Shown here piece after piece: positions 11,504-26,679 of a DNA stretch of 32,000 nucleotides. Positions within the stretch are counted from its first letter, which is position 1; each line of letters opens with the position of its first letter. The notes beneath the pieces are model-generated. The model worked only from the letters and a program-made list of their open reading frames with translations, was not told the DNA's origin and did not search any database. The position numbers and the translations under genes were made by a program. The stretch comes from Peristeroidobacter soli (GTDB lineage: Bacteria; Pseudomonadota; Gammaproteobacteria; Steroidobacterales; Steroidobacteraceae), in the NCBI RefSeq assembly GCF_004138485.1, contig NZ_RYEV01000005.1, positions 636,827 to 668,826 of the forward strand, written 5' to 3'.

Positions 11504-11579
11504 GCCCCCGTAGCTCAGTGGATAGAGCGACCGCCTCCTAAGCGGTAGGTCGCAGGTTCAACTCCTGCCGGGGGCACCA
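11504..11579 (+). tRNA. tRNA-Arg (anticodon CCT), with encoded CCA
   Basis: Hand-folded cloverleaf. Acceptor GCCCCCG/CGGGGGC; D arm GCTC-AGTGGATA-GAGC; anticodon arm ACCGC-CTCCTAA-GCGGT (CCT at positions 34-36); variable loop AGGTC; T arm GCAGG-TTCAACT-CCTGC; then ACCA. Confidence 0.9.
11558..11579 (+). repeat. attL core: 22-bp direct repeat (tRNA 3' end)
   Basis: TCAACTCCTGCCGGGGGCACCA recurs exactly at 26842-26863. Confidence 0.85.
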
Positions 11580-11674
11580 GTCCTGCCTCCGAAGCCATCC
11601 GAGGCCGACTGAAAGAACTCGAAAAACCCTAGAATTCCGCCGAAATTCCCGCTGCTGAGATCTGCAGCCATCCG

Positions 11675-11741
11675 TTGACAGCATAGCACCGTCGGGGGTA
11701 TCTGTGGGGGTACCTGCCCAGAAATCGCTCCTGGTACCCCC
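11675..11741 (+). promoter_or_regulatory. Candidate int promoter (TTGACA 11675-11680) overlapped by GGGGGTAYC repeats (11694-11702, 11706-11714, inverted copy 11733-11741)
   Basis: Motifs read directly from the sequence. The same tandem pair occurs at 26768-26788 next to attR. Assigning them as integrase arm-type or operator sites is inference. Confidence 0.4.
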
Positions 11742-11745
11742 ACGC

Positions 11746-13065
11746 ATGGCAATCAACACTCTGACCGATTCAGCCATCAAGGCGGTCAAGGTTTCGGACA
11801 AGCCAGTGAAGCTGTTCGACGGTGCTGGCCTGTTCGTTTTGGTGAAGCCCACGGGCGCAAAGTACTGGCGTCTGAAGTATCGGCATGGTGGGCTCGAGAA
11901 GACGCTGGCGCTCGGCGTCTATCCGGAGGTCTCGCTGAAGCGTGCTCGCGAGAAGCGGGATGAGGCGAGGCAGCTGCTTGATCGGCAGATCGATCCGAGC
12001 TCACTTCGCAAGGCTCACAAGCAGGCGAACAAGGTTGCCAAGGAGAATACGTTCGCGGCGGTGGCCGAGGAGTGGTTCGCTCATTATCGCGAGCAAAGGG
12101 AGCAGGGGCAGAGGGCGCTGTCGCGAGCGACGATCGTCAAGACTCAGTGGCTGTTGAACCTGGCTGAGTATCGGGCGAAGGAGAACAAGGCTGATGCGCC
12201 ACATCCGTTGCGAGCAATCAGCGATCGGGCAATTCAAACTATTTCGAAAGATGACATTGCGGCCGTTATCAATGGCCTGAAGAAGCGGAACAAGATCGAA
12301 ACCGCTCACCGCATGATTGACCGTGTCGAGCGGGTGTTTCGGTATGCCGTTGGCACCGGGCGAATGCAGATCAATCCTGCCGCCGCATTCCGAGACAGCG
12401 CCGATCCGCGGGACAAGCTGCCGCCGCTGGCTGTGAAGAACCACGCGGCGATTACCGAGCCGCGTCGGGTTGGCGAGTTGCTCCGTGCGATTGCCAGCTA
12501 CAGCGGGCAGCCCGTGACTGAGGCTGCGATGAAGCTAGCGCCATACTTGTTTGTTCGGCCGGGCGAGCTTCGCGCGGCTGAGTGGTCGGAATTCGATCTG
12601 ACCGGCGACGACCCAACATGGCGCATTCCAGCGGCGCGAACAAAAACGCGCCGTGAGCATGTCGTGCCGCTCGCGTCGCAGGTTGTTTCGACCCTCAATG
12701 AGCTCCATCCACTGACCGGTCCCGACGGATTGGTGTTCCCATCGCTCACAAACTCCACGCGACCGCTGTCGGAGAACGCGATTACTGCCGCTCTGCGTCG
12801 CATGGGGTATTCCGGCGATGAGATGACCTGGCACGGTTTCCGTACGACCGCGACCACGCTGCTACGTGAGCTGGGCTGGGAGGATGAGTTGATTGAACGG
12901 CAGCTTGGGCACGATGTCGGGAACGATGTGAAGCGGGCCTATGACAAGTCGAAACGGCTGCCGGATCGCCGGAGGATGATGCAGGCGTGGGCTGATTATC
13001 TTGATGGGCTGCGTGTCGGTGGCAAGCCTCCACCGATCCGCGCTCGTGCCGCGCCAACGAGGTGA
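11746..13065 (+). CDS. int: Tyrosine-type site-specific integrase, P4/CP4-57 family
   Basis: The N-terminus MAINTLTDSAIKAVKVSDKPVKLFDGAGLFVLVKPTGAKYWRLKYRHGGLEKTLALGVYPEVSLKRAREKRDEA is the DUF4102 arm-binding domain. The catalytic region contains WHGFRTT and LGHDVGNDVKRAYD. Confidence 0.92.
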   Translation: MAINTLTDSAIKAVKVSDKPVKLFDGAGLFVLVKPTGAKYWRLKYRHGGLEKTLALGVYPEVSLKRAREKRDEARQLLDRQIDPSSLRKAHKQANKVAKENTFAAVAEEWFAHYREQREQGQRALSRATIVKTQWLLNLAEYRAKENKADAPHPLRAISDRAIQTISKDDIAAVINGLKKRNKIETAHRMIDRVERVFRYAVGTGRMQINPAAAFRDSADPRDKLPPLAVKNHAAITEPRRVGELLRAIASYSGQPVTEAAMKLAPYLFVRPGELRAAEWSEFDLTGDDPTWRIPAARTKTRREHVVPLASQVVSTLNELHPLTGPDGLVFPSLTNSTRPLSENAITAALRRMGYSGDEMTWHGFRTTATTLLRELGWEDELIERQLGHDVGNDVKRAYDKSKRLPDRRRMMQAWADYLDGLRVGGKPPPIRARAAPTR

Positions 13066-13178
13066 TCGTCAGATGCTTACCGAGAAAGGAGTGGATGCCA
13101 CTTCTACACATCGCGACACACCGTGCTTGAGCAATCGCCACTGAGCGGTATCGGTAGTTGTTCGATCCCTACTAGAGC

Positions 13179-13251
13179 GCGTCGATTCTGGCACCGCCCT
13201 GGGCCATAACGCGTCGATTCCCGCCGGCTGTACGAAGAAACGCGTCGATTC
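13179..13251 (+). repeat. Three direct repeats GCGTCGATTC at 13179, 13211 and 13242 (31-32 bp phasing)
   Basis: Read directly: GCGCGTCGATTCTGG, AACGCGTCGATTCCCG, AACGCGTCGATTCACA. Confidence 0.7.
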
Positions 13252-13267
13252 ACACAACGAGAGTTCG

Positions 13268-13348
13268 AATTGGCGACCATTTCATTGGTCATCACGTCGA
13301 AATGGCGGCCATTTCTCCGGCCGACGAATGGGAAATGGCGTCCTTTTC
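13268..13348 (+). repeat. Three repeats (A/T)AATGGCGNCC(A/T)TTTC at 13268, 13300 and 13333 (32-33 bp phasing); the middle copy is a perfect 8-1-8 palindrome
   Basis: AATTGGCGACCATTTC, AAATGGCGGCCATTTC (within GAAATGGCGGCCATTTC) and AAATGGCGTCCTTTTC, read directly. They continue the phasing of the preceding repeat set. Confidence 0.7.
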
Positions 13349-14307
13349 TTCTGAACGTCACGACAAACTGCGCAGGCGGGACCAAAAGCGTGTGCCGGGC
13401 ATTCATCGTTTCGTTCTTTCACCCGCGCGGCGTCGTCCGACCAATCAAGAACAGGGGCGGGCGCGCGGAGGCGATGGGGTGCGCATGACAAGCCGCGCCG
13501 ACTTCATCAATTGGAGTGCCAAGTGCGTGTCTGGAATTGCCTCGTGCAAGACAGAGTGATTGCACTGTGGACAACCAACTGCTTGAAAGTGCCCGCCATC
13601 AAACGCTTATAAATCACAGCGCTCTTGCAGAAACATTCTGAGCGACTCAACGCAGAGTTGCATCCCTGTCGCAGCGATGCACGACCGCGCACGAAATTTT
13701 CTTGGAGAAAGCATTGAAAATTGCGCTGGCAAGCGCAGAATGATTGCCGTATCGAAGGATCGTGAATCGATCCGACAGGGCGAAGGCCCTGAGCAGCGCA
13801 AGCCGACGCTACCCAAACCGGCCTGGAATGTCTGGTCCGACTAACCGGTCTAGACCACACGAAATAGCCAGCTAGTCAAGCTGGCACATCTTAAGCCCGC
13901 CCCTTAGATCGCGTGAGCGACCACAGCTCGTTTTGATCCAGTCGCATTCGGCACTGGCTCTAACGTCATGCAAGCCTACGCACGACGTCGAACCACTCGG
14001 CCCACTACGGAATTTGCTCGCGCACCCAGCGGATCAGAGGATCCGGCGCCCCTGTAGCAGCTACCAGGCGTAGCTCCTCAGGACGTTGGTGCACAAGGTC
14101 GAAGCCGCGTCGGCAACGCGGTGTGCTCTCACGACCTGCAATTTCCTGAATCGCGCTCCCGATGGACGGCCCGACGGCCGAAGCCGCGGAAGCGAATGCG
14201 CTTGCCTGAGCGCGAGCACCCAACCCTCAAGTAACTGCCTGGTGTGTAACACCGAACGGAGAGCGCCGATCCCCCAATCCATTTCATTTTCTAACGCGGA
14301 GAAAGTC

Positions 14308-15330
14308 ATGAGTTCCTTCGACAGGCTGAAGACCCGTGGATCACGAGTGATGAGGCTGGGCTATAAAGTTTGGCGCCAGGTGCGCCAAGAGTTTCCAGCG
14401 GCCTTACTGAAGTCCGCGAATGGCGTGCGACTAGTCGGTGCTAAAACCCGGCGCGATCGCGCCATCACGCTGCGTAAATTCGTCTTTTGGGTCGTCGCGG
14501 AGTTTGAGATTCATTCCGTGACGCATCTCAAGCGCAAGCACATCCAGGCATATTGCAAGGATCTGGAGGAGCGAAAGCTGCGTCCTGCGACGATCGCTAC
14601 GGAGCTTTCTCACCTGGCGGTGTTGTTCAGGCAGCTCGGCAAGTCGCAACTGCTGGATGACCGCGACAGTCTCTTTTCGGACCCGAGCATCTTGAGGCGC
14701 AATCTAGTCGCCACAAGAGATAAGTCCATTGAAGGTGCTGGTCTCGATTTCGAGGTGATTTTCGCAGCGGCCGATGCTCTCAACCCGCGTGTGGCAGTCC
14801 AACTGGCGCTCTGTTGGTATTTCGGTCTACGGGCCCAAGAGGCCTGGTGTTTCAGGCCGCATCTAGCAGTGCAGGATGGATTCGTGTGCGTGAACTGGGG
14901 AACAAAGGGCGGCCGCCGACGCTCGCTCTCCGGGCCACTGACGGACGAACAGTGGCATCTGATCGAGCTTGCAAAGACCTTCGCTGCCACAGCGCCGGAG
15001 TCGACGGTGCCGAGAGGGTGTTCGCTCAAGAAGTGGAAGGCCATCTTCTATCGGGTGACCCGAAGAATTGGCCTGACGCGGGCCAAGTTAGGCGTCACGC
15101 CGCATTCCCTTCGACACTCGTACGCCCAGCGCCAGTATCAGCGAGTGACGTGGCATCTGACGCCTGTGCAGGGTGGCACACTGGCTGAGGATGATGGTCC
15201 CGCTGATAGTGCGGCTCGAGAGATTGTTTCCAGCGAGTTGGGGCACTCGCGAGCGTCGATTGCGTCGGCATATATCGGCGGTACCCGTGTGACCGGAGAG
15301 GGAAAAGCCGAGCAGGGCGGGGCAGGTTGA
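14308..15330 (+). CDS. Second tyrosine recombinase-like protein (integrase-domain protein)
   Basis: ATG 14308 after GGAG. Candidate catalytic residues are in YFGLRAQEA (Arg), TPHSLRHSYAQ (His-x-x-Arg) and LGHSRASIASAYIG (His, Tyr). The N-terminal part resembles a SAM-like core-binding domain. Confidence 0.7.
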   Translation: MSSFDRLKTRGSRVMRLGYKVWRQVRQEFPAALLKSANGVRLVGAKTRRDRAITLRKFVFWVVAEFEIHSVTHLKRKHIQAYCKDLEERKLRPATIATELSHLAVLFRQLGKSQLLDDRDSLFSDPSILRRNLVATRDKSIEGAGLDFEVIFAAADALNPRVAVQLALCWYFGLRAQEAWCFRPHLAVQDGFVCVNWGTKGGRRRSLSGPLTDEQWHLIELAKTFAATAPESTVPRGCSLKKWKAIFYRVTRRIGLTRAKLGVTPHSLRHSYAQRQYQRVTWHLTPVQGGTLAEDDGPADSAAREIVSSELGHSRASIASAYIGGTRVTGEGKAEQGGAG

Positions 15331-15448
15331 TCAGGAGGAACATTCGCGAAGAAGGTCTCGGCAATGGAGCCGGGGCCGCTCAGACCCTCTTGCAGATTTG
15401 GTCATCCATGCTATCGCTCGACTGAGTGCACTGACAGTCGAGGCGACT

Positions 15449-15859
15449 ATGCGTGGCAAAGTAAAATGGTTTTCTCGGGAGAAAGGTTACGGCTTCATCA
15501 CAGATGAGCAGGCGCGCGATCACTACTTCTCTGTGCAGGACGTTCGAGGCGCGGACCTGCCGGCGTCCGGAGATCAGGTTCAGTTTCAATCGCAAGATAC
15601 GAGTCAGGGTCTACGAGCGTCGGCAATTCAGTTGGTCGCCCGAAGCGAGGATGGCCGTCGTAGCGATGACCGCGTGAAATGCGGCAACTGTGGAAGGAAG
15701 ATGGTGCCGCGGATCATTAGCTACCAAGGACAAGTTGAGCGATCGGTGTGTCCGTTCTGTGCGGAGACTTATTGCGACTTCTTGCCGCCCTCAACTTCTA
15801 TATGGGGATGGGTTGTGGTGGTGGTCTTTATCTTGGTTGCCTTCATTGGATGGTTCTAG
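15449..15859 (+). CDS. Cold-shock-domain protein fused to a CxxC...CxxC zinc ribbon and a C-terminal TM helix
   Basis: GAGG RBS. MRGKVKWFSREKGYGFITDE (RNP1-like KGYGFI); then KCGNCGRKM...VCPFCAETYC; then IWGWVVVVVFILVAFIGWF at the C-terminus. Confidence 0.75.
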   Translation: MRGKVKWFSREKGYGFITDEQARDHYFSVQDVRGADLPASGDQVQFQSQDTSQGLRASAIQLVARSEDGRRSDDRVKCGNCGRKMVPRIISYQGQVERSVCPFCAETYCDFLPPSTSIWGWVVVVVFILVAFIGWF

Positions 15860-15950
15860 TCCTGAGAATGCGTAGATACAGCTCCATGTGAATCAGTTAC
15901 TTACCGGAGCCTTGCCACCCGAGTCTATGGGCTCTTGCCCGGAGTCATGG

Positions 15951-15997
15951 CCGATGAAATCGTAGACAGGATAGGGAATCCTGTGTACGCTTTCATC
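15951..15997 (+). promoter_or_regulatory. Nested palindromic operator/leader immediately upstream of abiEi
   Basis: The outer arms are GATGAAA...TTTCATC and the inner arms ACAGGAT-N5-ATCCTGT. The element ends 2 nt before the ATG at 16000. AbiEi antitoxins are known autorepressors that bind inverted repeats. Confidence 0.5.
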
Positions 15998-15999
15998 GG

Positions 16000-16596
16000 A
16001 TGAATCGCAGAGCAATTATTCCGGGTCGAAAGGCCTTACCTTCGGCCTTCACCTACACGCAGGCCAGGGCTGCCGGTATCTCGGCCGAGCGGCTGTACGC
16101 CTATCGTTCCCAGGGCCTTATCGATCAGGTCGCCCGCGGGCTGTATCGCTGGGCCGATGCACCCGAGATCGATCAGGATCTATTGGAGATTGCTCATCGC
16201 GCGCCGCAAGGCACGCTCTGCTTGGTCACTGCGCTGGCTCGCCACGGGCTGACGGATATCATTCCGCCACGCATCGACATTGCGCTGCCCCGAGGTAGCC
16301 GCGTTCCAGCGCTGCGCGAGACGATCCAAGTTCACGTCTTCGCTCGAGAAATGTTCGAACTCGGTCGAGATGAGATCAGCATCGGCGATAAACTTTCCAT
16401 CGGCATTTACTCTCCGGAGCGTACGATCGTCGATGTCATTCGGCTGCGACATCGTGAAGGGTCGGTTGTCGCGTGGGAGGCGCTTCGCCGCTGGATTTCG
16501 CGCAAAGGTTCCAAGCCCGCTGCGCTTCTGACGATCGCAAAACACTTTCGCGGCGCGGAAAAGGCTGTCCGGGCGGCACTGGAAGTCGTTTTATGA
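16000..16596 (+). CDS. abiEi: Type IV toxin-antitoxin system antitoxin, AbiEi family
   Basis: 198 aa with an N-terminal wHTH-like FTYTQARAAGISAERLYAYRSQGLIDQVARGLYRW, then LCLVTALARHGLTD. Its stop overlaps the abiEii start (ATGA). Confidence 0.85.
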   Translation: MNRRAIIPGRKALPSAFTYTQARAAGISAERLYAYRSQGLIDQVARGLYRWADAPEIDQDLLEIAHRAPQGTLCLVTALARHGLTDIIPPRIDIALPRGSRVPALRETIQVHVFAREMFELGRDEISIGDKLSIGIYSPERTIVDVIRLRHREGSVVAWEALRRWISRKGSKPAALLTIAKHFRGAEKAVRAALEVVL

Positions 16597-17489
16597 GTCC
16601 AGTGGATCGCACGTCAGTTGCCGGTGCGCGATATCTTGATCTCCAGCGCAAAGCGCGGCTAACCGGGCGACCGACCGACGAATTGATACAGCTATACGCG
16701 CTTGAGTGCTTTCTCGATCGCCTGACGCGGTCCGACTATGAGCAGAAACTAGTGCTCAAGGGTGGGGTGTTGCTCGCGGCTCTCGACGCCCGCCGTCCAA
16801 CAAGAGACATCGATTTGGCTGCTACTGCGCTCCGAAACACGGAGGCCGAGATACTGGGGGTCGTTCGCAAGATTGCTGACATCTCACTGGAAGATGGCAT
16901 TGCGTTCGATCCTGCGCAGGCCACTGCCGAGGTGATTAGAGAGGAGGATGATTACAGTGGCATACGTGTGACGCTCGGCGGAACATTGTCGCGCGCCACG
17001 GTTCGTCTCCATGTTGATGTGAACGTTGGCGATCCGATCTGGCCAGAGCCGCAGCACGTCAGCCTGCCGCGGCTGCTCGATGGGGCTCTACGGGTGCGCG
17101 GATATCCCCTGGAGATGGTGCTGGCCGAGAAGGTTGCGACCGCGATTGTCAGAGGCACGGCGAACACTCGATGGCGCGACTTCGTAGATCTATATACATT
17201 GGCCAGGCGACATCCGGTGAATGGCGCAACCTTCCGCGCCTCTCTTGATCGAGTGGCGCAGTACCGGAAGGTTGCTCTTGCGCCATTGGCTTCCGTGCTG
17301 ATTGGGTACTCGGAAATCGGTCAGGCGCGGTGGAGTGCGTGGCTGAGGAAGCAGAGGCTCGAGACGACGGTACCAACCGAGTTTTCCGCCGTACTGGATT
17401 ACGTTGTTTCGTTTGCCGACCCGATCATCGCTAGTCAGCCGGGCGGGCGCGGAACCTGGAATCCCGAGCGGCGCTGGTGGCATGACTAG
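16593..17489 (+). CDS. abiEii: Nucleotidyltransferase toxin, AbiEii/AbiGii family
   Basis: FLDRLTRSDYEQKLVLKGGVLLAALDARRPTRDIDLAA is the family's NTase motif. It shares a 4-nt overlap with abiEi. Confidence 0.85.
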   Translation: MSPVDRTSVAGARYLDLQRKARLTGRPTDELIQLYALECFLDRLTRSDYEQKLVLKGGVLLAALDARRPTRDIDLAATALRNTEAEILGVVRKIADISLEDGIAFDPAQATAEVIREEDDYSGIRVTLGGTLSRATVRLHVDVNVGDPIWPEPQHVSLPRLLDGALRVRGYPLEMVLAEKVATAIVRGTANTRWRDFVDLYTLARRHPVNGATFRASLDRVAQYRKVALAPLASVLIGYSEIGQARWSAWLRKQRLETTVPTEFSAVLDYVVSFADPIIASQPGGRGTWNPERRWWHD

Positions 17490-17749
17490 CTCGAACCTAT
17501 AACCAACTCATCAAGAGCCGGGATTGAGTGGAACGATGTGCGTTGTTGGAGAGACCGACGATCGGGGCATCAGGCTAGGTATGCCAAACCGGATTGCACA
17601 GGGGCGGCCAGAGATGCGTCTAGGGGCTTGGCGGGCCGGTAGTCATGAGCTGCAATCGTTTGCCGCGAATAAAGACAAACAGTAGGCAAGCGGCTTGTCC
17701 GATAGTCTCAGCGGTCGCGGATATGTGCCGCGATTGAATTGGAGGGCGC

Positions 17750-19462
17750 GTGCTTCAGATTGCCACTGGAAAATTGTTTACCAGGCCTGCAAGCAGAGAG
17801 AATCGTTTGCGCGGCATGCTCTATACGAATGCAATTCTCAGTCAAGACGGGGCTGTAGATACCGTCGCGGGACGATTGTTGCCGTCATCCAGCTATTCGA
17901 TACGTCCCAATGTCTTGGTCTATGAATTTACTGAGCGTATAGAAGCTGAAGAGCAGGGGCCGGGCGTGCTCGTGTCTTCCGGTGTCGAACCTTACCTCCA
18001 AGACTATTCGCTGGTGGTCTCGTTTGCGCTGAATTGCATATGTGCACCCGACGTTGATTTGGTCAGGAGGCTAACGAGCGGCCAGCGTGGATTGGCGACA
18101 ATGGTCGCTCCGCAAGTGCTCGTTCGCAGGTTCTTCGACAGAGAGCTTTGGTGTAATGCGGGTGAGCTAAGGTTTCTGGCAGACTTCATCGCCAAGGTCG
18201 TTGGATTGCCGAGACGAACTTTTCTCGGCGTCATGCGTGCGCTTCGGACCTATGTCAATGGAATGCATCGTATCGCTGATGATTTGGAACTGGCGTACAC
18301 GTTACTGGTTGCGTCCGTAGAGTCGCTTGCTCAAGACTTTGATGGTCATGAAAGTGACTGGGATTCGTTTGATGAGCGCAAGCGAAAAGCGATTGATAAG
18401 GCATTGTGTGGTGCAGACGAGGTGATTGCACAACGCGTTAGACGAGCCTTGCTCACGGTCGAGCACGTCGCGTTGGCGCGTCGCTTCCGAGAGTTCGCGG
18501 TGGCGCATACCTCGCCGGCCTACTTTCGCCAAGTGTCTGTTGATGGCCCGCAGCTTGCAAAATCGGAGCTTGCTGGGGCGCTTGGAGCTGCCTACCAGTC
18601 GCGATCCAAATACGTGCACCAACTCCGGCGGCTCCCGGATCTCGTGACATTGGGGCAGGGCTACGGTGAGACGGTGCTTGAAGGTCGGAGCACGCATCTG
18701 ACGCTGCAGGGGCTTTCACGACTGATGCGCAACGTGATAATCGAATTCGTCATGCGTCAGCCCTCGTTGGAGCATGAACCGTACAATTACCGATCAGAGC
18801 AAAGCGGCGTTGTTCGATTGCGTCTAGCTCCACAGTACTGGGTCGGTAGCACAGAAGGTGATATTACTCAGCAGGGACGTGACAAGCTGGAGGGGTTCTT
18901 AGAACAACTAGCGTCTTGCCTCCTCAAGGAGCTGAACGCGGTTCTCACAGATATGCGCCCGGTGCTGACAGCGGTCGCCGAGTTTCTACCAAGCCTTCCG
19001 AAGCACCTCAGGTTGCCATATCTGGCGTTGCATGAGCTTTTTAACATGCATGTGGCGAAGCAGGACTCGATCGAGACTCCTCCGGCAATCAGCACGCTAA
19101 TTCAGCACGAACTTGGCGAGCCGTCCCCTGAAAGTCTCATTGTTCATGCGCTGTCCGATCAAACCGCACCATGGTCGTTGGAAGTTCATCAAGCGGCTCT
19201 AGATAGTTACTGGCGTCGGCGCGCAGCTGCAAGCGGTCTGAGATTTCCGCGTGCCTTCGAGGCTGCTATGGCTTTGGAACTGGCCGAGCGATATCGCTGT
19301 GCGGGTGATATGAAAGGATGTGAGATTATCGTGGCGTTGGCGGTCGAAAACTATCCTGGGCTTTCTGGTCTCTTGGAGTTCGAGATGAATTTGCAGCCGA
19401 CTGTCCCGATTAGTTGGCGCGATGTCATATTGCCTAGGGCGGAGCGGCCGGCTCAACAGTAA
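17750..19462 (+). CDS. Hypothetical 570-aa protein; mid-protein Rx4H motif (RSKYVH, 18602-18619) suggests a possible HEPN-like domain
   Basis: GTG start 4 nt after GGAGGG. The long uninterrupted ORF has protein-like composition. I recognise no family. The HEPN assignment rests only on the motif and its helical context. Confidence 0.7.
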   Translation: MLQIATGKLFTRPASRENRLRGMLYTNAILSQDGAVDTVAGRLLPSSSYSIRPNVLVYEFTERIEAEEQGPGVLVSSGVEPYLQDYSLVVSFALNCICAPDVDLVRRLTSGQRGLATMVAPQVLVRRFFDRELWCNAGELRFLADFIAKVVGLPRRTFLGVMRALRTYVNGMHRIADDLELAYTLLVASVESLAQDFDGHESDWDSFDERKRKAIDKALCGADEVIAQRVRRALLTVEHVALARRFREFAVAHTSPAYFRQVSVDGPQLAKSELAGALGAAYQSRSKYVHQLRRLPDLVTLGQGYGETVLEGRSTHLTLQGLSRLMRNVIIEFVMRQPSLEHEPYNYRSEQSGVVRLRLAPQYWVGSTEGDITQQGRDKLEGFLEQLASCLLKELNAVLTDMRPVLTAVAEFLPSLPKHLRLPYLALHELFNMHVAKQDSIETPPAISTLIQHELGEPSPESLIVHALSDQTAPWSLEVHQAALDSYWRRRAAASGLRFPRAFEAAMALELAERYRCAGDMKGCEIIVALAVENYPGLSGLLEFEMNLQPTVPISWRDVILPRAERPAQQ

Positions 19463-19541
19463 GGGGCCTGGCTTTCGCCCGATGCCGCTCTCAACGGAGC
19501 GACCAACGTGCAGTTTGGAGAGGCAGAGAAGAAAGCTTGTC

Positions 19542-19559
19542 AGGGAGCGACGGCTCCCT
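19542..19559. terminator. Candidate bidirectional hairpin between the convergent genes
   Basis: AGGGAGC-GACG-GCTCCCT is a perfect 7-bp stem. There is no U-tract, so this is weak. Confidence 0.3.
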
Positions 19560-19633
19560 ACCTCAAGGAGAGCGTCCATCGGTGCCGTTAACTCTTCGGA
19601 ATGATTCGGTCGCGATTTCTTCGGGCGTCAGAA

Positions 19634-20764
19634 TCACTCGGGGAGTGAGCTGACGGTGGGGTGTCCGTTCTGAGTATCCAGATCGCTACGTCGATGTTTC
19701 CGTTGGGGAGTGACGTTCACTGTTGAGCCTGGTGGGTCGTTGTCGCTGGGCTGCCCGTGCCGCTGCGATACTACTCGGCCCTTATACTGGGAACGAGCAG
19801 ACGCCACTACTTTCGCAAGGAGTGTCTCCCACGGGATTGTTTCCTCACTACACTTGCTGGAACCGATCGCTGCTATCGCGTGCTCCAACTCCTCCCTTTG
19901 GCGAGGACTTACGCTGAAGTTCGGAATCGAGTACAGAATGTAGAGATAGTCAGCGTCCAGCCAGTGATCAAGATCAAAGAATAGGGCTGCACTTCCGTGC
20001 TGACCCAGGGTGCCATTGCACCATTTCTTCAGTCTGCGCTCTATATCCGTAACTACTCCGCTGGTGAGCGGGCCGTCGGGTACGATATAGGCGTCTGGGG
20101 GTATTCCAAAGCGTCTTCTCGCGTCTCCCTCCCAAGCCTGCATACGGCGCTCGAATGCCTCGTCGTGCGAGTCGTCATCGTCGTCCTCGTTGCAGTTGTC
20201 GGGTCTGGCTTCAAACTCCTCCTTAATCTTCAGATCGTACGCGCTGTAGTACGCTGCAATTTGGTGGAAATTCATTAGCGATCGAAACGTAAGCGATCTC
20301 ACATGGTGGCGTCCCTCTGAGAACTGTCCGATCGCCGCGCTCGTGTCCCGATTAAGCCGTGCATGTAGGGCCTGCTTGATCTTCTCAATTACGTCAGTAA
20401 TCCCAAGACCAGAAGGTATCGCGATCTTGTCAGCGATCAGCGGTGAATAACGCGCTACTGCATCTCGATCCATGTTGTGCCAGATTGTAACCAGTGGCTT
20501 TCCACTCGCCACTTCCTGACCAGTAAGCGCGGAAAGTTCCATCTGAGGCCATTCCTTTTCAAAAAAGGACGGGCTCAAAACCACGATTCCCGCTGCTGAG
20601 CGAGCCAATCCATGATCGATAGAGCGCCGGAGGCTGTCTCCCGGTACGAGGGAAAACTCGTCGTACCAAACCTTATAGCCTTGCGCATTCAATCCATTGG
20701 CGAGTGTGGTTACAAAGGGAATCCGGTCCTCGCTCGCGTAGCTAATGAACAGATCCCATTTCAT
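19634..20764 (-). CDS. TIR-domain protein with uncharacterised ~230-aa C-terminal domain (TIR-X)
   Basis: MKWDLFISYASEDRIPFV...YKVWYDEFSLVPGDSLRRSID...VVLSPSFFEKEWPQMEL are the TIR box motifs, including the conserved Glu. The C-terminal half (acidic NEDDDDDSHDE linker, then an unknown domain) was not recognised. An alternative GTG start lies at 20800. Confidence 0.8.
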   Translation of the reverse strand: MKWDLFISYASEDRIPFVTTLANGLNAQGYKVWYDEFSLVPGDSLRRSIDHGLARSAAGIVVLSPSFFEKEWPQMELSALTGQEVASGKPLVTIWHNMDRDAVARYSPLIADKIAIPSGLGITDVIEKIKQALHARLNRDTSAAIGQFSEGRHHVRSLTFRSLMNFHQIAAYYSAYDLKIKEEFEARPDNCNEDDDDDSHDEAFERRMQAWEGDARRRFGIPPDAYIVPDGPLTSGVVTDIERRLKKWCNGTLGQHGSAALFFDLDHWLDADYLYILYSIPNFSVSPRQREELEHAIAAIGSSKCSEETIPWETLLAKVVASARSQYKGRVVSQRHGQPSDNDPPGSTVNVTPQRKHRRSDLDTQNGHPTVSSLPE

Positions 20765-21691
20765 CCAGTCTTTACTCCCATCGCACGCTTCAGTGGGCAC
20801 TTAGAGTCTAAACATAACTTGCATATTGCCGCATCGCGGTGCGCGCAAGTACGCTGGACTAGCAGGTTCGAAGCTGTGCGCGATTCTATCAACAGATAAA
20901 GTAATGTTTCGACAGATCACTGGATATTGACGGCAACAGTATGGCCTGCGAAACCTAGTGTTCTTGCGCTCGTGTGAAGGCGCGCTTAATCTTGCCGAGC
21001 CTCACGGCGGTGGCGGTTGGCGGCGAATCGAGCTGCTCTCGACTCCGACGGTGGAATGACCGCCGATTTCCTTTACAGATCTTGCTGCGCGAGTCGGGCG
21101 CCACTAGACGCGGAGGCAATGAGGCAGCAGTATGGAGGCGCAATTGCGCGTGTCCAGAATAACTCAGCTATTGTCGATTCAGCAGATGCCAACGAGCGGA
21201 AGTCTCGTACCACCCGCATCAAACATCGATGTGATTGGATGCATGAAGCACGCTCGAGCGTGTCTTGCCTTACGCGCCAGCGTCCTTGGTTTCGATAGCT
21301 AACTTCCGTAGGGCTGCGGCGAGAGCTTCGACCGTTCAACAGCTCATAGCATAGCCCGTGCAGAGCACCAGCTGCAGTGAGATGTAACGACGCGAGGGAG
21401 GAAGGTGGGCGCTCATCGCTGCCGGTTGTTCGAGTCATAGCGACATCGAAGAGGTCGTTCAAACGCGCGTTCGGGATGGACGGCGTGGTGGTGTATCATC
21501 AACGGCTCGCTAACGTCACCAGGGCGGTCGGCAGCTAGAATGACAGGTAGAATATTATGACAAAGCACAGTCACGCTGCGAATCGTAGGTCGAATACTGT
21601 GAGATCCTAAATCGCTTGAAATTCCTGGGCGCCGAGACCGCATAAGAATCAAATTGTCACTAATGGTTTGAGCTTTTGGGGAGATACGGAA

Positions 21692-22189
21692 ATGGCTCGA
21701 CGGGTGTTCTTCAGCTTCCACTACGATGATATATGGCGAGTTAATCAAGTCCGCTTCTCCCAGCTCATCAAGAAAGAGAGTGAGACGAACAGCTTCATTG
21801 ACGCAGCCGAGTTCGAGAAAATCAAGCGCAGAGGCGCAAACTCGGTTGAACGGTGGATCGACGAGCAGCTTGAAGGCACATCTACCACCATAGTGCTGAT
21901 CGGATTCGGGACCGCAGATCGCCCGTACGTGCAATACGAGATCCGCAAGAGCTACGAACGCGGCAATGCCCTGCTTGGGATATGGCTGGACAACATCAAA
22001 GACCAGGGCGGCCAAATCAGTTTCTTGAGAGGCGCAAACCCTTTCGAGAAAGTCAAAGTTCCCGGCGGCTTCTTTGGCGAAATCTCCATTGCTGACAAGC
22101 TCAGTGTCCCCGTCTACGACTGGGTGAATGCTGACGGTCGCAACAACATCGCCACCTGGATCGCGGGCGCACCCCGGAAGCAGAGCTGA
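21692..22189 (+). CDS. thsB: Thoeris ThsB, TIR-like (DUF1863-type) protein, copy 1
   Basis: GGAGA RBS. MARRVFFSFHYDDIWRVNQVR...TIVLIGFGTADRPYVQYEIRKS parallels Bacillus cereus MSX-D12 ThsB as I recall it (RVFFSFHY...RVN.VR...RWVRYEI). It ends 7 nt before thsA. Confidence 0.85.
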   Translation: MARRVFFSFHYDDIWRVNQVRFSQLIKKESETNSFIDAAEFEKIKRRGANSVERWIDEQLEGTSTTIVLIGFGTADRPYVQYEIRKSYERGNALLGIWLDNIKDQGGQISFLRGANPFEKVKVPGGFFGEISIADKLSVPVYDWVNADGRNNIATWIAGAPRKQS

Positions 22190-22196
22190 TATCCCC

Positions 22197-23639
22197 ATGG
22201 CAATAGTCAGTCTCGAGTCGTTTATAGAAGATTTTTCGTCCGAATTGCGCGACCGCAATGCTGCGATATTCGCCGGCGCTGGTCTTTCCGTCGATGCCGG
22301 CTTTGTGAACTGGAAGGGCCTGCTGCGTCCCCTTGCGGTCGAGCTCGGCCTCGACGTAGACCGAGAACACGACCTAGTACGCATCGCGCAGTATCACGTG
22401 AATCACCACGACAGCAACCGCCATGACCTCACGCAAGCGGTCTTGAACAAGTTCGCCGAGAAGGAAGCGCGGGTCACAGAGAACCATCGCATCCTCGCGC
22501 GGCTGCCAATACAGACATTCTGGACCACGAACTACGATTCCTGCATCGAACAGGCGCTGCGCGCTGCCGGAAAGAACCCGGACGTGAAGCACGATCCAAA
22601 ACAGCTGCCACACACGCTCCATGGGCGTGGCGCCATCGTTTACAAGATGCATGGCGACCACTCGCATCCCAGCGAGACGATCCTCTGCAAAGAGGACTAC
22701 GAGAGGTATCCAGTTAGTCACGGAGACTTTCTTACGGCGCTTGCCGGAGACCTTTTGTCGAAGACCTTTTTGTTTGTCGGTTTCAGCTTCTCCGACCCGA
22801 ATCTTGATTATGTCCTCGGTCGCCTCTATACGCGCCATGGGAGAAATCAGCGCAAACATTATTGCTTCGTGAAGAAGGAGAGTGCTGAGGCGGCAGATGC
22901 TCCCGGCGACCTCGAGTATCGCGTTGCCAAGCAGGAACTCTTCATTCGCGACCTTGGTCGCTACAACATTCGGGCGGTAGTGATCGATGCGTACGAGGAC
23001 ATCACGCGAGTGCTGTCGCTGGTTGAGAATCGATACAAGAGCAAGACGGTGTTTGTTTCTGGCGCCGCGCACGAATACGGAGCGCTGAGTGAAAGGGATG
23101 CGCTCGGCTTTGTGCATTCACTCGGGAAAACCCTGATCGACCGTGACTTCAGGATCGTGACTGGCCTCGGGCTCGGTGTTGGCAGCACCATCGTTGACGG
23201 AGCGCTCCAACAAATCTATCAGGTGCAACGACGATCGCTTACGGATCAGTTGCTCATTCGACCTTTCCCTCAGTCAGTTACCGGAAAGATGCTATGGACC
23301 AGCTACCGCCACGACATGCTCGCCTACGCCGGCTTGGCAGTATTCATGTTCGGAAACAAACTTGAAGGTGGCGCGACGCCATCTGTAGTCGACTCGAACG
23401 GAATGATCGAGGAATTCGAGATTGCGTGCGCCAAGGGAACGCGGGTGTTGCCGCTAGGTTTTACAGGCTATGTGGCTCGGCAGCTCTACGAAAAGGTTTT
23501 TGCCTCATTTGGGGCGTATTATCCAACTGCAACCACTGCTTTCAAACAGCAGTTCCGCCATCTTGGCGACACGACAAGAACGCTGACCGAGCAGCTGACA
23601 ACGACAGTCGACGCTCTCGTCGAGCTACAGAAAATGTAA
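22197..23639 (+). CDS. thsA: Thoeris ThsA, SIR2 NADase domain + SLOG signal-binding domain
   Basis: Near-collinear with B. cereus ThsA as I recall it. Shared segments: NAAIFAGAGLS, ENHRILARLPIQTFWTTNYD (Asn at residue 112), VYKMHGD (His at residue 152), SKTFLFVGFSFSDPNLDY, then the SLOG part KTVFVSGAAHEY, TGLGLGVGS, IRPFPQ, FMFGNK. Confidence 0.92.
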   Translation: MAIVSLESFIEDFSSELRDRNAAIFAGAGLSVDAGFVNWKGLLRPLAVELGLDVDREHDLVRIAQYHVNHHDSNRHDLTQAVLNKFAEKEARVTENHRILARLPIQTFWTTNYDSCIEQALRAAGKNPDVKHDPKQLPHTLHGRGAIVYKMHGDHSHPSETILCKEDYERYPVSHGDFLTALAGDLLSKTFLFVGFSFSDPNLDYVLGRLYTRHGRNQRKHYCFVKKESAEAADAPGDLEYRVAKQELFIRDLGRYNIRAVVIDAYEDITRVLSLVENRYKSKTVFVSGAAHEYGALSERDALGFVHSLGKTLIDRDFRIVTGLGLGVGSTIVDGALQQIYQVQRRSLTDQLLIRPFPQSVTGKMLWTSYRHDMLAYAGLAVFMFGNKLEGGATPSVVDSNGMIEEFEIACAKGTRVLPLGFTGYVARQLYEKVFASFGAYYPTATTAFKQQFRHLGDTTRTLTEQLTTTVDALVELQKM

Positions 23640-23657
23640 GTCAACCAAGGAAGATCT

Positions 23658-24143
23658 ATGGCAAGAGAACCAGTCTTCTACAGCTTTCACTTCGACAACG
23701 ACGTGTTTCGTGTTCAGCAGGTCCGGAACATGGGCGTAATCGAGGGCGATGAGCCCGTTTCGGCAAATGAGTGGGAGCAACTCAAGAGACGATCCGGCGG
23801 CGTCGAAAGGTGGATCGACGATAACATGAAGTACAAGCGGTGCGTTGTTGTGCTCATCGGCTCCGAGACCGCAAGTCGTCCTTGGGTGAAGTACGAGATC
23901 AAGAAGGCCTGGAATGACGGGCGAGGGCTGGTCGGTATCTACATTCACAACCTCAAATGCCTTCGAACCCGTACAACCTGTTCCAAGGGAATAAATCCGT
24001 TCGCAAACTTCACTGTAGATGGCCAATCAATGGCGAACCTGGTCACATGTCACGACCCTAACTCTTGGGATGCCTATGCAGACATCAAAGACAACCTTGA
24101 GTACTGGGTGGCAGATGCTATTGCACGGGCCAAGCGCCGTTGA
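23658..24143 (+). CDS. thsB: Thoeris ThsB, TIR-like (DUF1863-type) protein, copy 2
   Basis: AAGGAAG RBS. MAREPVFYSFHFDNDVFRVQQVR...VVVLIGSETASRPWVKYEIKKA; a divergent paralogue of copy 1. Confidence 0.85.
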   Translation: MAREPVFYSFHFDNDVFRVQQVRNMGVIEGDEPVSANEWEQLKRRSGGVERWIDDNMKYKRCVVVLIGSETASRPWVKYEIKKAWNDGRGLVGIYIHNLKCLRTRTTCSKGINPFANFTVDGQSMANLVTCHDPNSWDAYADIKDNLEYWVADAIARAKRR

Positions 24144-24161
24144 AGTGCGGAGATTTCTGAA

Positions 24162-24740
24162 TTGGCCGTCCTTTCGAAGAGCGACCTTCTGAGGCGATAT
24201 AACTTGAGGCAGACGACGCGTCTGTCGGAAGGCGGTGAAAAGCAGTTCTCGAAGTATAGGTTGATGGAGGCGGGCAAAGCCTTTTCGTACACTACCAAAT
24301 ACGACGTGTTTCTATCTCATTCTTTCGATGATGCTCGCATCGTGCTACTGATCAAGGAAATGATCGAGGAGGCGGGACATACGGTCTATGTCGATTGGAT
24401 GGAGGATGATCACCTAGACCGCGGGCGAGTGAACGAGGCTACCGCAAGAACACTTCGCGACAGGATGAATCAGTGTTTATCACTTATCTATCTTACGTCG
24501 CAATCCGCCGCACAATCACTCTGGATGCCTTGGGAGCTTGGGTACATGGATGCTAAAACCGGCAGAATTGCGGTTGCGCCGATTCTCGAAGACAATGAAT
24601 CGTTTGAAGGGCGCGAGTACCTAGGTCTGTATCCATACCTTGACCTTACAGTCGGTAGGTTCTTCATCCAGCGTGCACCCCGCGAATGGACATCCCTACA
24701 ACAGTGGATCGCTGGCGAGAATCCGCAGTTGCACGTCTAA
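24162..24740 (+). CDS. thsB: Third ThsB-position protein, canonical TIR domain
   Basis: TTG start 9 nt after GGAG (alternative ATG at 24264). YDVFLSHSFDDARIVLLIKEMIEEAGHTVYVDW...LIYLTSQSAAQSLWMPWELGY are TIR motifs with the conserved Glu. The gap after copy 2 is 18 nt. Confidence 0.75.
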   Translation: MAVLSKSDLLRRYNLRQTTRLSEGGEKQFSKYRLMEAGKAFSYTTKYDVFLSHSFDDARIVLLIKEMIEEAGHTVYVDWMEDDHLDRGRVNEATARTLRDRMNQCLSLIYLTSQSAAQSLWMPWELGYMDAKTGRIAVAPILEDNESFEGREYLGLYPYLDLTVGRFFIQRAPREWTSLQQWIAGENPQLHV

Positions 24741-25336
24741 CTTCGGCCATAAGCCTTATCATCGCGACAACGGTGATACCGAGGGGCGAAGGAGGGCCGA
24801 ATGAAGGGAATGATGGGATGGGGACGTCAGCCCATTCCGCTTCGTCTTTCTATCGCTCGAGATCGTCACGGTATAGCTTGTGACCACAGCGGTGCGAATC
24901 GCTGAAACTTTTTCGTTGAGTTCGCCTTCTCGCCCAGTTCTTGACGTCCTGTTCCTTCTGACTTACGTTCCATCTGGGCACCATCAGGTGTGTATTAGAC
25001 TTGGCCGCCGAAGAACTTCCTGGTCATCGGTGGCACCCGCAGTGAATCCGTCAGAACGCCTGTTCTGTCCGATTCAATGAAGACGTCGCACGCTGACCAG
25101 CCAATCAGCGAGCTGATTACCTCGACCGCATGCGTCCACTACGGTCGCAAGACAGACGGCTTCCCATCGCCCGCGGGTCACCATCCTCACCGGGAATTCT
25201 TCACCATGCATGCGTCTCCGACGATTCTCTTTGCGCGCCGATCGGCGAGGATGAGCTTTGCTTTTACAATGCATTCATCCCGGTTAGGTCACGATAAGAA
25301 TGCGTGGCTTCTTCGCACATCATGGGAGGGCGTAAG

Positions 25337-25651
25337 ATGAACACGCCTCGTTTACTACGGCTGCGGCAGGTCATTGAGATCACCGCATTGGGCCGGGACA
25401 CCATCTACCGCTACATTCGCGCTGGTCAATTCCCGCGTCAACGACGCATAAGTGAGCGCGCCAGCGCGTGGCGAGAGGATGAGATCAAGGAATGGGTCGA
25501 CTCGCGCCCGATTGTCGAACTGAACTCTGAAACGCCGCAGTCGTCCGGGAGCCACCGACGAAGCCGCCGCGCAGCGAATTGTGACACAGCCCGAGAACCA
25601 GTGCCGACAGCGAGTGCCGTGGCTGTTGGAACTAGATGCGCGGATTCTTAA
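25337..25651 (+). CDS. alpA: AlpA-family phage regulatory protein / putative excisionase
   Basis: GGGAGG RBS. LLRLRQVIEITALGRDTIYRYIRAGQFPRQRRISERASAWREDEIKEWV is the AlpA/MerR-like HTH. The C-terminal tail is unusually long and low-complexity. Confidence 0.75.
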   Translation: MNTPRLLRLRQVIEITALGRDTIYRYIRAGQFPRQRRISERASAWREDEIKEWVDSRPIVELNSETPQSSGSHRRSRRAANCDTAREPVPTASAVAVGTRCADS

Positions 25652-25713
25652 CGATCCACTGCGCGGAGAGTCTCGGGCCCATGGACCTTGCGAGCCTAGT
25701 CGGGGCTGGCACA

Positions 25714-26103
25714 TCATCCGGTCCTCTTGTTCGCGGCCTCGAGCGTATCGATGATCCGGATCACGAATCGCTGTTGCGTCTTGCTGAGTGCCTGAAGCCG
25801 CTCAGCGTGACGCATCGCTCTGGGTGACAGCCGGCCTTTGTGAGCGGGTGTCTGCCTGGCTAGTCCGATTAGATGCTCTACCGGAACGGTGAGCACCTTC
25901 GCGATCTTGGCAAGCACGAGTACGGAAGTGCGGCGCTCGCCGAGTTCGTACGCGAAGACGGCTTGCTGAGATACGCCGATGGCGCGAGCCAGCTCGGCTT
26001 GCGTCATGCCTCGAGCCTTGCGCAGCTGGGTGATTTGCGCGCCGAGCAGCGCGAAGTAGCGCTTGGACTCTGCTCTGATTCGTGGGGACAAAGTTGCGGT
26101 CAT
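25714..26103 (-). CDS. XRE-family HTH transcriptional regulator
   Basis: LGAQITQLRKARGMTQAELARAIGVSQQAVFAYELGERRTSVLVLAKIAKVLTVPVEHL is a Cro/C1-type HTH. Confidence 0.85.
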   Translation of the reverse strand: MTATLSPRIRAESKRYFALLGAQITQLRKARGMTQAELARAIGVSQQAVFAYELGERRTSVLVLAKIAKVLTVPVEHLIGLARQTPAHKGRLSPRAMRHAERLQALSKTQQRFVIRIIDTLEAANKRTG

Positions 26104-26318
26104 GTCCTGCTCTCCGACTGGCCGAGCATGGCAATCGCGCTTTCCACGAGCGTACTGAGCCCGGCGACGGCGTCCGCGAGATCGAGCTGCTGATGCTCGT
26201 CAGGATGATCGGCGGCAATCTCGATGCACTTCGCGACCGCCAAAGCTGTCTGCATGCGACGGTGCGGGGCGTGGACTTGGGCGCGTTCTCGCCGCGCCGA
26301 GGCCTTGGCAGCCTTCAC
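26100..26318 (-). CDS. Hypothetical 72-aa protein, translationally coupled (ATGA) to the XRE gene
   Basis: The stop overlaps the XRE ATG and the GTG start overlaps the upstream ORF's stop (GTGA). No family was recognised, and high-GC frames make this uncertain. Confidence 0.4.
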   Translation of the reverse strand: MKAAKASARRERAQVHAPHRRMQTALAVAKCIEIAADHPDEHQQLDLADAVAGLSTLVESAIAMLGQSESRT

Positions 26319-26530
26319 GGGCCCTTCGCCCGGAGCTTGCGAAGCTCCTGTTCCAATTGCTCGATTCGGTCCAAGCAGCGCATGGCCAGCGCCACCATGC
26401 TGTCCAATGCATCGGCGGCATGGTTGAGCCGGAAGTGAAGCGAGCTTTGGTCGGCGCGATCAGCCCTCGCCGTCGCGCGCAGCACCTGCGAAGTAGCGAG
26501 CGTCTCGGCGAGCTGGGTTGCGGCGTTCAT
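26315..26530 (-). CDS. Hypothetical 71-aa helical protein, coupled within the same operon
   Basis: Coiled-coil-like C-terminus (LDRIEQLEQELRKLRAKGP). Start and stop overlap on both sides. Confidence 0.4.
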   Translation of the reverse strand: MNAATQLAETLATSQVLRATARADRADQSSLHFRLNHAADALDSMVALAMRCLDRIEQLEQELRKLRAKGP

Positions 26531-26679
26531 CGGTCACCTGCGGCCGGGTCAGGCAGGTGGAGCGGATGAGGCTCGCCGCGGAACGAGGCGGTATCGACTC
26601 GAGCGGAGAGGAAGAGATCGTCCGCGATAGGGAAGCGGAAGCGTCCCCGGACCCGACGGGGGACGATGGGCGTAGCCAT
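26527..26679 (-). CDS. Hypothetical 50-aa ORF (not in the supplied track, below the size cutoff), first gene of the coupled operon
   Basis: Hand translation: MATPIVPRRVRGRFRFPIADDLFLSARVDTASFRGEPHPLHLPDPAAGDR. GAGGT lies 7 nt upstream of the ATG at 26679. The stop TGA overlaps the next ATG. Confidence 0.35.
   Translation of the reverse strand: MATPIVPRRVRGRFRFPIADDLFLSARVDTASFRGEPHPLHLPDPAAGDR

Follow-up and report, generated by a model that had tools for sequence, protein, structure and literature searches.

ApeA is reportedly the single-gene defense system of Gao et al. 2020. The protein has been described as a decameric or dodecameric ring that cuts the anticodon of tRNA and is activated by 5'-phosphorylated deoxydinucleotides, with a loop at residues 331-341 acting as an allosteric switch in which R334A, R336A, and a triple mutant alter activity (bioRxiv 10.64898/2026.01.26.701840). 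The R502A mutant of ApeA loses function. A further HEPN tRNase, DARNA, is switched on by single-stranded DNA (ssDNA) that is presented by SSB, the phage protein that binds such DNA; its nuclease is autoinhibited and freed on infection, and its C-terminal Pds5-like domain senses ssDNA (bioRxiv 10.64898/2026.02.22.705581). Here, we compare these systems with a 570-amino-acid (aa) protein encoded in a 32,000-nucleotide (nt) stretch of DNA (the window) from Peristeroidobacter soli (Gammaproteobacteria, family Steroidobacteraceae). We propose, with a probability of about 0.62, that its gene encodes a stand-alone, three-domain immune effector, namely, an infection-activated HEPN ribonuclease (RNase) of the ApeA clade.

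The original prediction, made from the sequence of the window, took this protein for an orphan, which it is not: a word-indexed search returned 675 relatives, and an exhaustive search showed that the family comprises, at 50% identity, no fewer than 774 clusters (601 at E <= 1e-10). Nearly all members are ~570 aa long, all are labeled hypothetical, and none carries a Pfam domain. The family is spread over several phyla and was found in Pseudomonas, Burkholderia, Xanthomonas, Acinetobacter, Ralstonia, Bradyrhizobium, Bacillus, Nocardia, and cyanobacteria, and full-length relatives encoded on plasmids of Bacillus thuringiensis (24% identity) and Nocardia (28%) retain the three-domain layout together with all key conserved residues. 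Conservation was read from family alignments of growing diversity, comprising 23, 36, 93, and 82 sequences, the 82-sequence set reaching 26% identity. Over the whole protein, only five columns are invariant in the 93- and 82-sequence alignments, namely, E191, Y282, R285, S286, and H290, while N27, F92, L153 (96%), R155 (99%), Y183, V187, W204, G321, W364, W475, A531, and P536 are near-invariant (>=90%).

Three of these five residues lie in the string on which the original prediction was built, an Rx4H motif, AYQSRSKYVHQL, which is indeed present in the protein (R285 at nt 18602-18604 and H290 at nt 18617-18619). Taken alone, the motif is worthless as evidence, as it does not rise above chance: the protein is rich in arginine (51 R, 13 H) and contains six Rx4-6H matches, where shuffled versions (n = 5000) contain 3.35 on average, and Rx4H is present in 70% of these shuffles. 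It is meaningful because R285 and H290 are conserved, and not because the string occurs. Both residues are 100% conserved among 82 to 93 diverse members; in none of the five other Rx4-6H strings are both residues more than 80% conserved. Conservation among homologs had been named beforehand as a test on which the prediction could fail, and R285, S286, and H290 proved invariant down to 26% identity.

An AlphaFold2 model of the full-length protein, built on the 36-sequence alignment, has a mean predicted local distance difference test score (pLDDT) of 90.0 and a predicted template-modeling score (pTM) of 0.75, and it divides the protein into three domains; the central domain modeled alone has identical secondary structure (pLDDT 90.6, pTM 0.81). 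The N-terminal ~190 residues had been read as beta-rich, and strands are indeed modeled there, but the alpha/beta domain to which they belong ends near residue 131, not 190. Its near-invariant residues are M1-L2-Q3, N27, G41, and F92. In the central domain, the model places helices H0 (residues 137-152), H1 (155-176), H2 (179-197), H3 (271-291), and H4 (319-336), with a beta-hairpin at 308-317, and the helical segment anticipated ahead of the motif appears as a long helix containing LAYTLLVASVESLAQDF. The last part of the protein, which had been described as helical or TPR-like and as an extra domain, is modeled as helical over its final ~225 residues and is absent from ApeA; TPR_14 matches below threshold occur in 28 of the 82 members (best E 9e-5), always as one unit at ~507-545.

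Weak matches to Pfam EAD1 (Effector-associated domain 1) were also seen in 6 of the 82 members (best E 0.007, residues ~516-549), and in P0127, the sole member whose coordinates were seen, the match falls on the same C-terminal helix pair as TPR_14. Such matches could point to an adaptor-like module or simply be noise.

HEPN domains are defined as four-helix up-down bundles, often with an insert between H2 and H3, that carry Rx4-6H at the end of helix 3, a conserved acidic residue in helix 2 near the motif, and, directly after the conserved arginine, a polar residue that is mostly N, D, or H (Anantharaman et al. 2013, PMC3710099). The central domain has a conserved R285-x4-H290, a polar residue in the next position (S286), and an acidic residue in helix 2 (E191); a serine after the arginine is also found in an ApeA-like reference HEPN family, A7, introduced below. 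At the level of topology, the model agrees with the definition as well, in that the motif closes H3 and the insert follows H2. The original prediction had asked where the motif lies in the fold, and the model places it at the C-terminal end of helix 3 in an H1-H2-insert-H3-H4 arrangement, with the conserved glutamate in helix 2.

ApeA is represented by the Ec1-4ApeA structures (9HXI etc.) and by the Pfam families PF18739 (HEPN_Apea) and PF18862 (ApeA_NTD1). To place this domain among HEPN proteins, we compared it with two sequence families. The first, A7, is a Collimonas-type family of 54 diverse members whose seed is a 375-aa Collimonas protein in the DefensePredictor supplement; this protein is named "HEPN domain-containing protein" by NCBI and "Apea-like HEPN" by UniRef, and its HHblits probability to ApeA is reported as 91% (DefensePredictor supplement). 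The second, the Ec2ApeA branch, consists of 36 aligned full-length relatives from 120 that were retrieved with a fragment of Ec2ApeA from the ApeA preprint supplement, in which six ApeA sequences are given up to residue ~400.

Profile comparison by hhalign aligned the unedited central domain with A7 at a probability of 49% (P 1.7e-4). For the H3-H4 segment, the score was 36.6 (probability 93%, E 2.4e-7, z 14), a value reached by 0 of 80 shuffles and set against 11.2 for the reversed control, and for the core from which the insert had been excised it was 38.1 (probability 86%, E 4.7e-6, z 12.5, 0 of 80 shuffles), with reversed controls at noise. The alignment of the excised core is a single, collinear run of 60 columns in which E191 falls opposite E284, and Y282/R285/S286/H290 fall opposite Y326/R329/S330/H334, these five being the invariant residues of A7. 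A profile comparison of the kind called for by the original prediction came out in its favor, with a recognized ApeA-like HEPN family matched at 86-93% (z = 12-14) and the catalytic residues in register. The Ec2ApeA branch has among its invariant residues E371 in "LWIALESL" and Y499, R502, N503, and H507 in "IYRTRNxIVH," and the corresponding "LLVASVESL" and "AYQSRSKYVH" of the 570-aa family follow the same pattern, i.e., the ApeA-type signature; E191 aligns with E371, and Y282/R285/S286/H290 align with Y499/R502/N503/H507. Toward the N-terminus, the H0-H2 segment scored 20.7 against Ec2ApeA (shuffles 9.2 +/- 2.0, 0 of 120 equal; reversed control 7.8), in an alignment that pairs residues 148-159 with the Ec2ApeA regulatory loop 331-341. 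On this moderately significant alignment, residues 148-159 may be the counterpart of that loop. An alignment of A7 with the Ec2ApeA branch covers the same helices (score 26.9, E 0.025). Taken together, the central domain is very probably a HEPN domain of the ApeA clade. Orphan status aside, the original reading as a possible ApeA-like HEPN nuclease with an additional C-terminal helical domain is supported.

Despite the common catalytic core, the protein is not a member of the ApeA family, because its N-terminal (residues 1-131) and C-terminal (346-570) domains match nothing in ApeA. When compared by hhalign with ApeA 1-320 (N-terminal plus Mid domains) and with the N-terminal region of A7, the two domains gave z values of -0.8 to 1.9; the N-terminal domain has no Pfam match, and ApeA_NTD1 was matched by 0 of the 82 members. 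The protein also falls short of the Pfam HEPN_Apea score, does not have the C-terminal HEPN layout, and is not recovered by the PADLOC ApeA model. Of "ApeA-like HEPN," as the protein had been called, the description thus fits the core and not the whole. The similarities with ApeA are as follows: (i) both are single proteins of ~570-590 aa without a partner gene, found in defense islands and on mobile elements; (ii) in both, helix 2 carries phi-A-x-phi-E-S-L and helix 3 closes with Y-x-x-R-[N/S]-x-x-V-H, in a HEPN domain that is split by a large insert; and (iii) the segment ahead of H1 aligns with the ApeA regulatory loop. The differences lie in the architecture, as the HEPN domain is central here (137-340), with an unrelated alpha/beta domain before it and a 225-aa TPR-like domain after it, whereas ApeA has it at the C-terminus (335-583), after helical N-terminal and Mid domains. 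The residue after the catalytic arginine is Ser here and Asn in ApeA, and the H2-H3 insert is ~73-90 aa long, compared with ~128 aa in ApeA and ~40 aa in A7. In sequence, A7 is the closest detectable relative of the HEPN core, with an identical invariant set, E...Y-x-x-R-S-x-x-x-H; its HEPN domain, however, is C-terminal and compact, its N-terminal region (~250 aa) bears no relation to either of the flanking domains here, and a TPR-like domain at the C-terminus is lacking.

Other HEPN systems resemble the protein in single respects. Judging from the description of its architecture, DARNA likewise has, in one protein, a HEPN domain with a large all-helical domain after it, in its case a repeat sensor, but its HEPN domain is N-terminal (1-159), Csm6-like, and without a preceding domain; no PADLOC model matched the 570-aa protein. 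With PrrC and RloC, the protein would share the use of a HEPN RNase as back-up defense, and one homolog (47% identity; locus L030:2495-11755) directly follows a complete type I restriction-modification (R-M) set, HsdR (2495-5047), HsdM (5051-6508), and HsdS (8224-9975), a PrrC-like arrangement. Unlike in PrrC and RloC, there is no N-terminal ATP-binding cassette (ABC) ATPase domain, as 0 of the 82 members have a P-loop or ABC domain. By analogy, the minimal RNase chemistry, an Rx4H motif in a dimeric active site, may be that of HepT/MntA (type VII), but the protein is four times larger, has accessory domains, and lacks an adjacent MNT nucleotidyltransferase antitoxin; the flanking genes in the window are AbiEii upstream, paired with AbiEi, and a convergent TIR gene downstream, with no MNT. 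HEC-08 (DUF3644 plus Zn-ribbons) and DS-11 (CBS plus HEPN) were considered and rejected because of their different architectures.

The anti-phage reading draws on analogy and on the setting of the gene, a mobile island crowded with anti-virus genes (Table 1). The ORF (open reading frame) stands as the original prediction had called it on the forward strand, with a GTG start that is supported by the N-terminus MLQI.TGKLF kept in homologs, and with GGAGG 5' of the start. Around the gene, no consensus sigma-70 promoter or intrinsic terminator was found, a negative that is uninformative for P. soli. The island is integrated at a tRNA-Arg(CCT) gene between perfect direct repeats, and it matches a fall in guanine-plus-cytosine (GC) content from ~0.63 to ~0.55, the lower values lying between ~13 and ~25 kb. 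Since it holds a second integrase-like gene, the island may be composite or contain a nested element. Beyond the convergent TIR gene lies a Thoeris-like block in which three ThsB-type genes surround one ThsA.

Several features of the island and its border are recorded for themselves. The C-terminal extension of the cold-shock-domain (CSD) protein is unusual: it combines a zinc-ribbon-like set of two CxxC pairs (CGNCG...CPFC) with a hydrophobic tail, WGWVVVVVFILVAFIGWF, by which the protein looks membrane-anchored. A 78-nt direct repeat stands just upstream of both AbiEi and a Fic/DOC gene outside attR, and it may be a common operator or promoter for two AbiEi-family regulators. The two antisense ORFs that overlap the ThsB and ThsA genes are probably high-GC artifacts rather than genes.

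Elsewhere, the homologs are found in similar company. A Pseudomonas homolog (L006/L007:1-17719) is variable cargo of a P2-like prophage, where it sits between gpD, gpU, and tail genes and an Ogr/primase/integrase module, with a TIR protein, a TacA-type antitoxin plus its 173-aa partner, and a DUF5677 protein in the immediate vicinity. Others are cargo of conjugative elements with a type IV secretion system (T4SS), one of them with HipAB and a Lit-type peptidase; one adjoins CBASS and AbiEii at a single locus, and further homologs occur on 17 plasmid records (one near cas9) and on one phage contig. Linkage to R-M genes was seen in 1 of 31 loci (L030). This distribution could also be that of a HEPN RNase with a selfish role, either as an addiction or stabilization toxin of mobile elements or as a weapon against competing elements, given that the gene is almost always on mobile DNA (tRNA island, conjugative-element cargo, prophage, plasmids) and that toxin-antitoxin modules (AbiE, HipAB, TacA) are common nearby. 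We consider a selfish role unlikely: a search around the gene for small conserved antitoxin-like ORFs, tandem repeats, and Rfam RNAs found none, no adjacent antitoxin gene or RNA is conserved, and a toxin without an antitoxin is hard to maintain; moreover, the large accessory domains suggest regulated sensing, and most of the neighbors are systems dedicated to anti-phage defense (Thoeris, CBASS, R-M, TIR).

As to whether the proposed effector acts alone, the ORFs flanking the homologs in the 31 loci were compared by all-against-all clustering. No universal partner gene was found, the commonest neighbor being present in 9 of the loci. This is a 589-619-aa ORF without a Pfam match, located on the same strand 0-69 bp downstream of the homolog, and the string "NNDLRIADAHE" near its C-terminus is of the Rx4H type; from its sequence, it may be another unrecognized HEPN protein. 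In five loci, a 284-290-aa ORF, also without a Pfam match, ends 13 bp upstream of the homolog and holds "ILARNRDQHPE," a canonical R-N-x3-H HEPN-like motif, and in three of these five it is preceded by an AbiEi/AbiEii pair. Such close spacing, and the HEPN-like R-x4-H strings in both ORFs (LRIADAH, ARNRDQH), would fit a multi-gene system from which the copy in the window has lost its partner, possibly becoming inactive or rewired. That scenario appears quite unlikely, as neither ORF is present in at least 17 of the 31 loci (those in the window, Pseudomonas, Dyella, Bacillus, and Nocardia included), the gene in the window is intact and fully conserved, and variable neighbors are typical of defense hotspots in which independent systems stand side by side.

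Table 1. Positions of the gene, its parts, and its neighbors in the window, and of two recurrent neighbor ORFs in other loci.
Feature	Position	Strand	Basis or remark
Protein-coding gene, complete, 570 aa	17750..19462	+	WP_129779436.1, Peristeroidobacter soli, labeled "hypothetical protein"
Shine-Dalgarno-like GGAGGG	17741..17746	+	Read from sequence; GGAGG 4-5 nt 5' of GTG start
N-terminal alpha/beta domain, aa 1-131	17750..18142	+	AlphaFold; beta-sheet (strands within 14-77) plus helices
Central domain, aa 137-340, very probably HEPN of the ApeA clade	18158..18769	+	AlphaFold, hhalign
Segment AKVVGLPRRTFL, aa 148-159, near-invariant L153 and R155	18191..18226	+	Conservation; aligns with Ec2ApeA loop 331-341
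E191, invariant acidic residue of HEPN helix 2, motif VASVESLAQ	18320..18322	+	Invariant in 93 sequences
Helical insert between H2 and H3, family-specific, ~73 aa (aa 198-270), near-invariant W204	18341..18559	+	AlphaFold
Predicted catalytic signature Y282-Q-S-R285-S286-K-Y-V-H290, C-terminal end of helix 3	18593..18619	+	Conservation, hhalign register
C-terminal all-helical domain, aa 346-570	18785..19459	+	AlphaFold; near-invariant W364, W475, A531, P536
TPR-like helix pair, aa ~501-546	19250-19387	+	Within C-terminal domain
Integrated island, 15.3 kb	11504..26863		tRNA-Arg(CCT), att repeats
tRNA-Arg(CCT)	11504-11579		
attL / attR, perfect 22-bp direct repeat TCAACTCCTGCCGGGGGCACCA	11558-11579 / 26842-26863		attL is the tRNA-Arg(CCT) 3' end
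P4-type integrase	11704-13065		
Second integrase-like gene	14086-15330		Pfam Integrase_1 and SAM-like N-terminal domains
Cold-shock-domain (CSD) protein	15398-15859		
AbiEi	16000-16596		
AbiEii	16473-17489		
TIR gene, convergent	19634-20800	-	Downstream of the 570-aa gene
ThsB	21668-22189		
ThsA	22128-23639		SIR2 + STALD/SLOG
ThsB, second	23658-24143		
TIR/ThsB-like gene	24162-24740		
78-nt direct repeat	15920-15997 and 27958-28035		74% identity
Fic/DOC protein	28209-29687		AbiEi_4-type N-terminal helix-turn-helix; outside attR
Antisense ORF, 323 aa, probable artifact	21413-22384	-	Overlaps ThsB/ThsA genes
Antisense ORF, 247 aa, probable artifact	22374-23117	-	Overlaps ThsB/ThsA genes
589-619-aa ORF	L011:11762-13531		Also L001, L009, L010, L015, L016, L019, L020, L028
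284-290-aa ORF	L012:9116-9988		Also L010, L013, L014, L021

Several results weigh against the assignment of the central domain and the proposed function. In library searches, the 570-aa protein had no match at threshold in Pfam, NCBIfam (2026), PADLOC (2023), or PDB sequences. Pfam HEPN_Apea matched 1 of the 82 members (P0174) and remained below threshold there (E 0.026, 15.4 bits vs a cut-off of 24.4), profile positions 3-101 of 136 aligning with P0174 residues 184-294, i.e., from H2 to the end of H3; likewise, the PADLOC model "Cas13-ApeA" matched a single member of the 82 (E 0.0011). In hhalign, the whole protein did not match the Ec2ApeA branch significantly, and the unedited whole domain did so at E 0.33 with 36 of 120 shuffles equal, although the top whole-domain alignment was nonetheless collinear across all motifs. 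To reach the strongest hhalign result, the domain had to be segmented or the insert taken out, and it was the model that guided this choice; for helix 4 no sequence match was detectable. Of the structure prediction and superposition that the original prediction had asked for, the first yielded a confident model with HEPN topology and the second no significant match: Foldseek of the full model against PDB returned generic TPR/ARM solenoids only (best E 0.55), the central domain reached a best E of 0.72 with none at E <= 0.001, and ApeA structures, although present in the PDB sequence copy, were absent from the match list. Finally, the role in defense is suggested by the neighborhood and by analogy.

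Within the same Foldseek search, six chains of the Thermus thermophilus HEPN RNase Csm6 were matched by the central domain at TMq 0.38-0.42 (probability up to 0.63), and every other PDB target was below TMq 0.3; in BFVD, one unnamed 222-aa protein was matched (E 0.08, TM 0.45). An hhalign comparison of the domain profile with the single TtCsm6 sequence (plasmid pTT27), a low-power test, gave nothing. With no library match at threshold, no significant Foldseek match, and the whole-domain comparison with Ec2ApeA at noise, the central domain could be an unrelated helical domain, either of another enzyme or a binding module, with E...YxxRSxxxH arising by convergence; short helical motifs can yield spurious profile matches. 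We regard convergence as improbable for the following reasons: (i) three elements, the H0/H1 segment, the phi-A-x-phi-E-S-L helix, and YxxR[SN]xxVH, are collinear and in the ApeA-type order; (ii) the matches stand at z 5.7 to 14 above shuffles, with reversed controls at noise; (iii) the topology, as predicted by the model, fits the HEPN definition point by point; and (iv) the only residues invariant in the family coincide exactly with the catalytic set of HEPN domains. In addition, the A7 profile found no match among the ApeA chains in PDB with HMMER, and the earlier negative hidden Markov model searches carry little weight because this accepted ApeA-like family is equally invisible to HMMER. 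It is very unlikely that the HEPN fold merely binds a nucleotide or other ligand without cleaving RNA, leaving the effector role to another part of the protein or to a partner: some HEPN domains are non-catalytic (PMC3710099), and no other effector domain was recognized in a protein with 355 aa of unassigned function, but such domains usually lose R or H (PMC3710099), both of which are invariant here across phyla, as are the polar residue after the arginine and the helix-2 glutamate, and the closest relatives are catalytic enzymes (function is abolished in ApeA R502A).

Returning to an infection-activated HEPN RNase, we infer RNase activity, dimerization, a trigger, an RNA target, and abortive infection in the following scheme. 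E191, R285, S286, and H290, with the Y282 signature, would form a metal-independent RNase site that, by analogy with other HEPN enzymes, would be completed by dimerization or by a higher oligomer. The N-terminal alpha/beta domain, proposed as a sensor or regulatory domain, and the C-terminal helical domain, proposed as a sensor or oligomerization domain, would hold the nuclease off until a cue of infection is sensed, candidates for which include phage proteins, nucleic acids, and small molecules; the flanking domains may drive oligomerization too. The GL-x-R155 segment, given its alignment with the ApeA loop, might relay the signal. Activation would lead the enzyme to cleave RNA of the host and/or the phage, most likely tRNA anticodon loops by analogy with ApeA, DARNA, and PrrC, and RNA cleavage would halt translation and thereby abort the infection. 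Neither an antitoxin nor a partner gene would be required, and there is precedent for such an arrangement in ApeA and DARNA, which are single-protein HEPN tRNases triggered by deoxydinucleotides and SSB-presented ssDNA, respectively (bioRxiv 10.64898/2026.01.26.701840; bioRxiv 10.64898/2026.02.22.705581).

Single-gene HEPN defense as a kind and the clade of the catalytic core are already known. What is new is the architecture (alpha/beta, split HEPN, TPR-like), the size and breadth of the family, and its absence from Pfam, NCBIfam, and PADLOC. No family member was found in the literature and supplements searched, and the signature peptides of the family were not found in the DefensePredictor supplements searched. 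A further-reaching reading, possible but doubtful, is that the protein is the founding member of a cross-phylum family of single-protein sensor-effectors in which two undescribed domains gate an ApeA-type HEPN domain, the trigger differs from the cues of ApeA and DARNA (e.g., a conserved phage protein), and the GL-x-R155 segment is an allosteric switch that ApeA also has. In that case, regulatory loops of the ApeA type would represent a control element of this HEPN clade that is both ancestral and portable.

The invariant E191, R285, and H290, together with the near-invariant R155, are ready targets for mutants, and the homologs from P. aeruginosa and the P2 prophage offer tractable test hosts. 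If the proposed immune effector is real, at least 774 clusters of "hypothetical" proteins would become a defined defense family that PADLOC, Pfam, and NCBIfam have missed, and the ApeA-type HEPN clade would extend beyond the ApeA architecture. As the mechanisms by which HEPN proteins of abortive infection are activated are only now emerging (ApeA and DARNA, both 2026), the family would provide a natural comparison, in which one catalytic core, and perhaps one regulatory loop, is wired to differing sensor domains.

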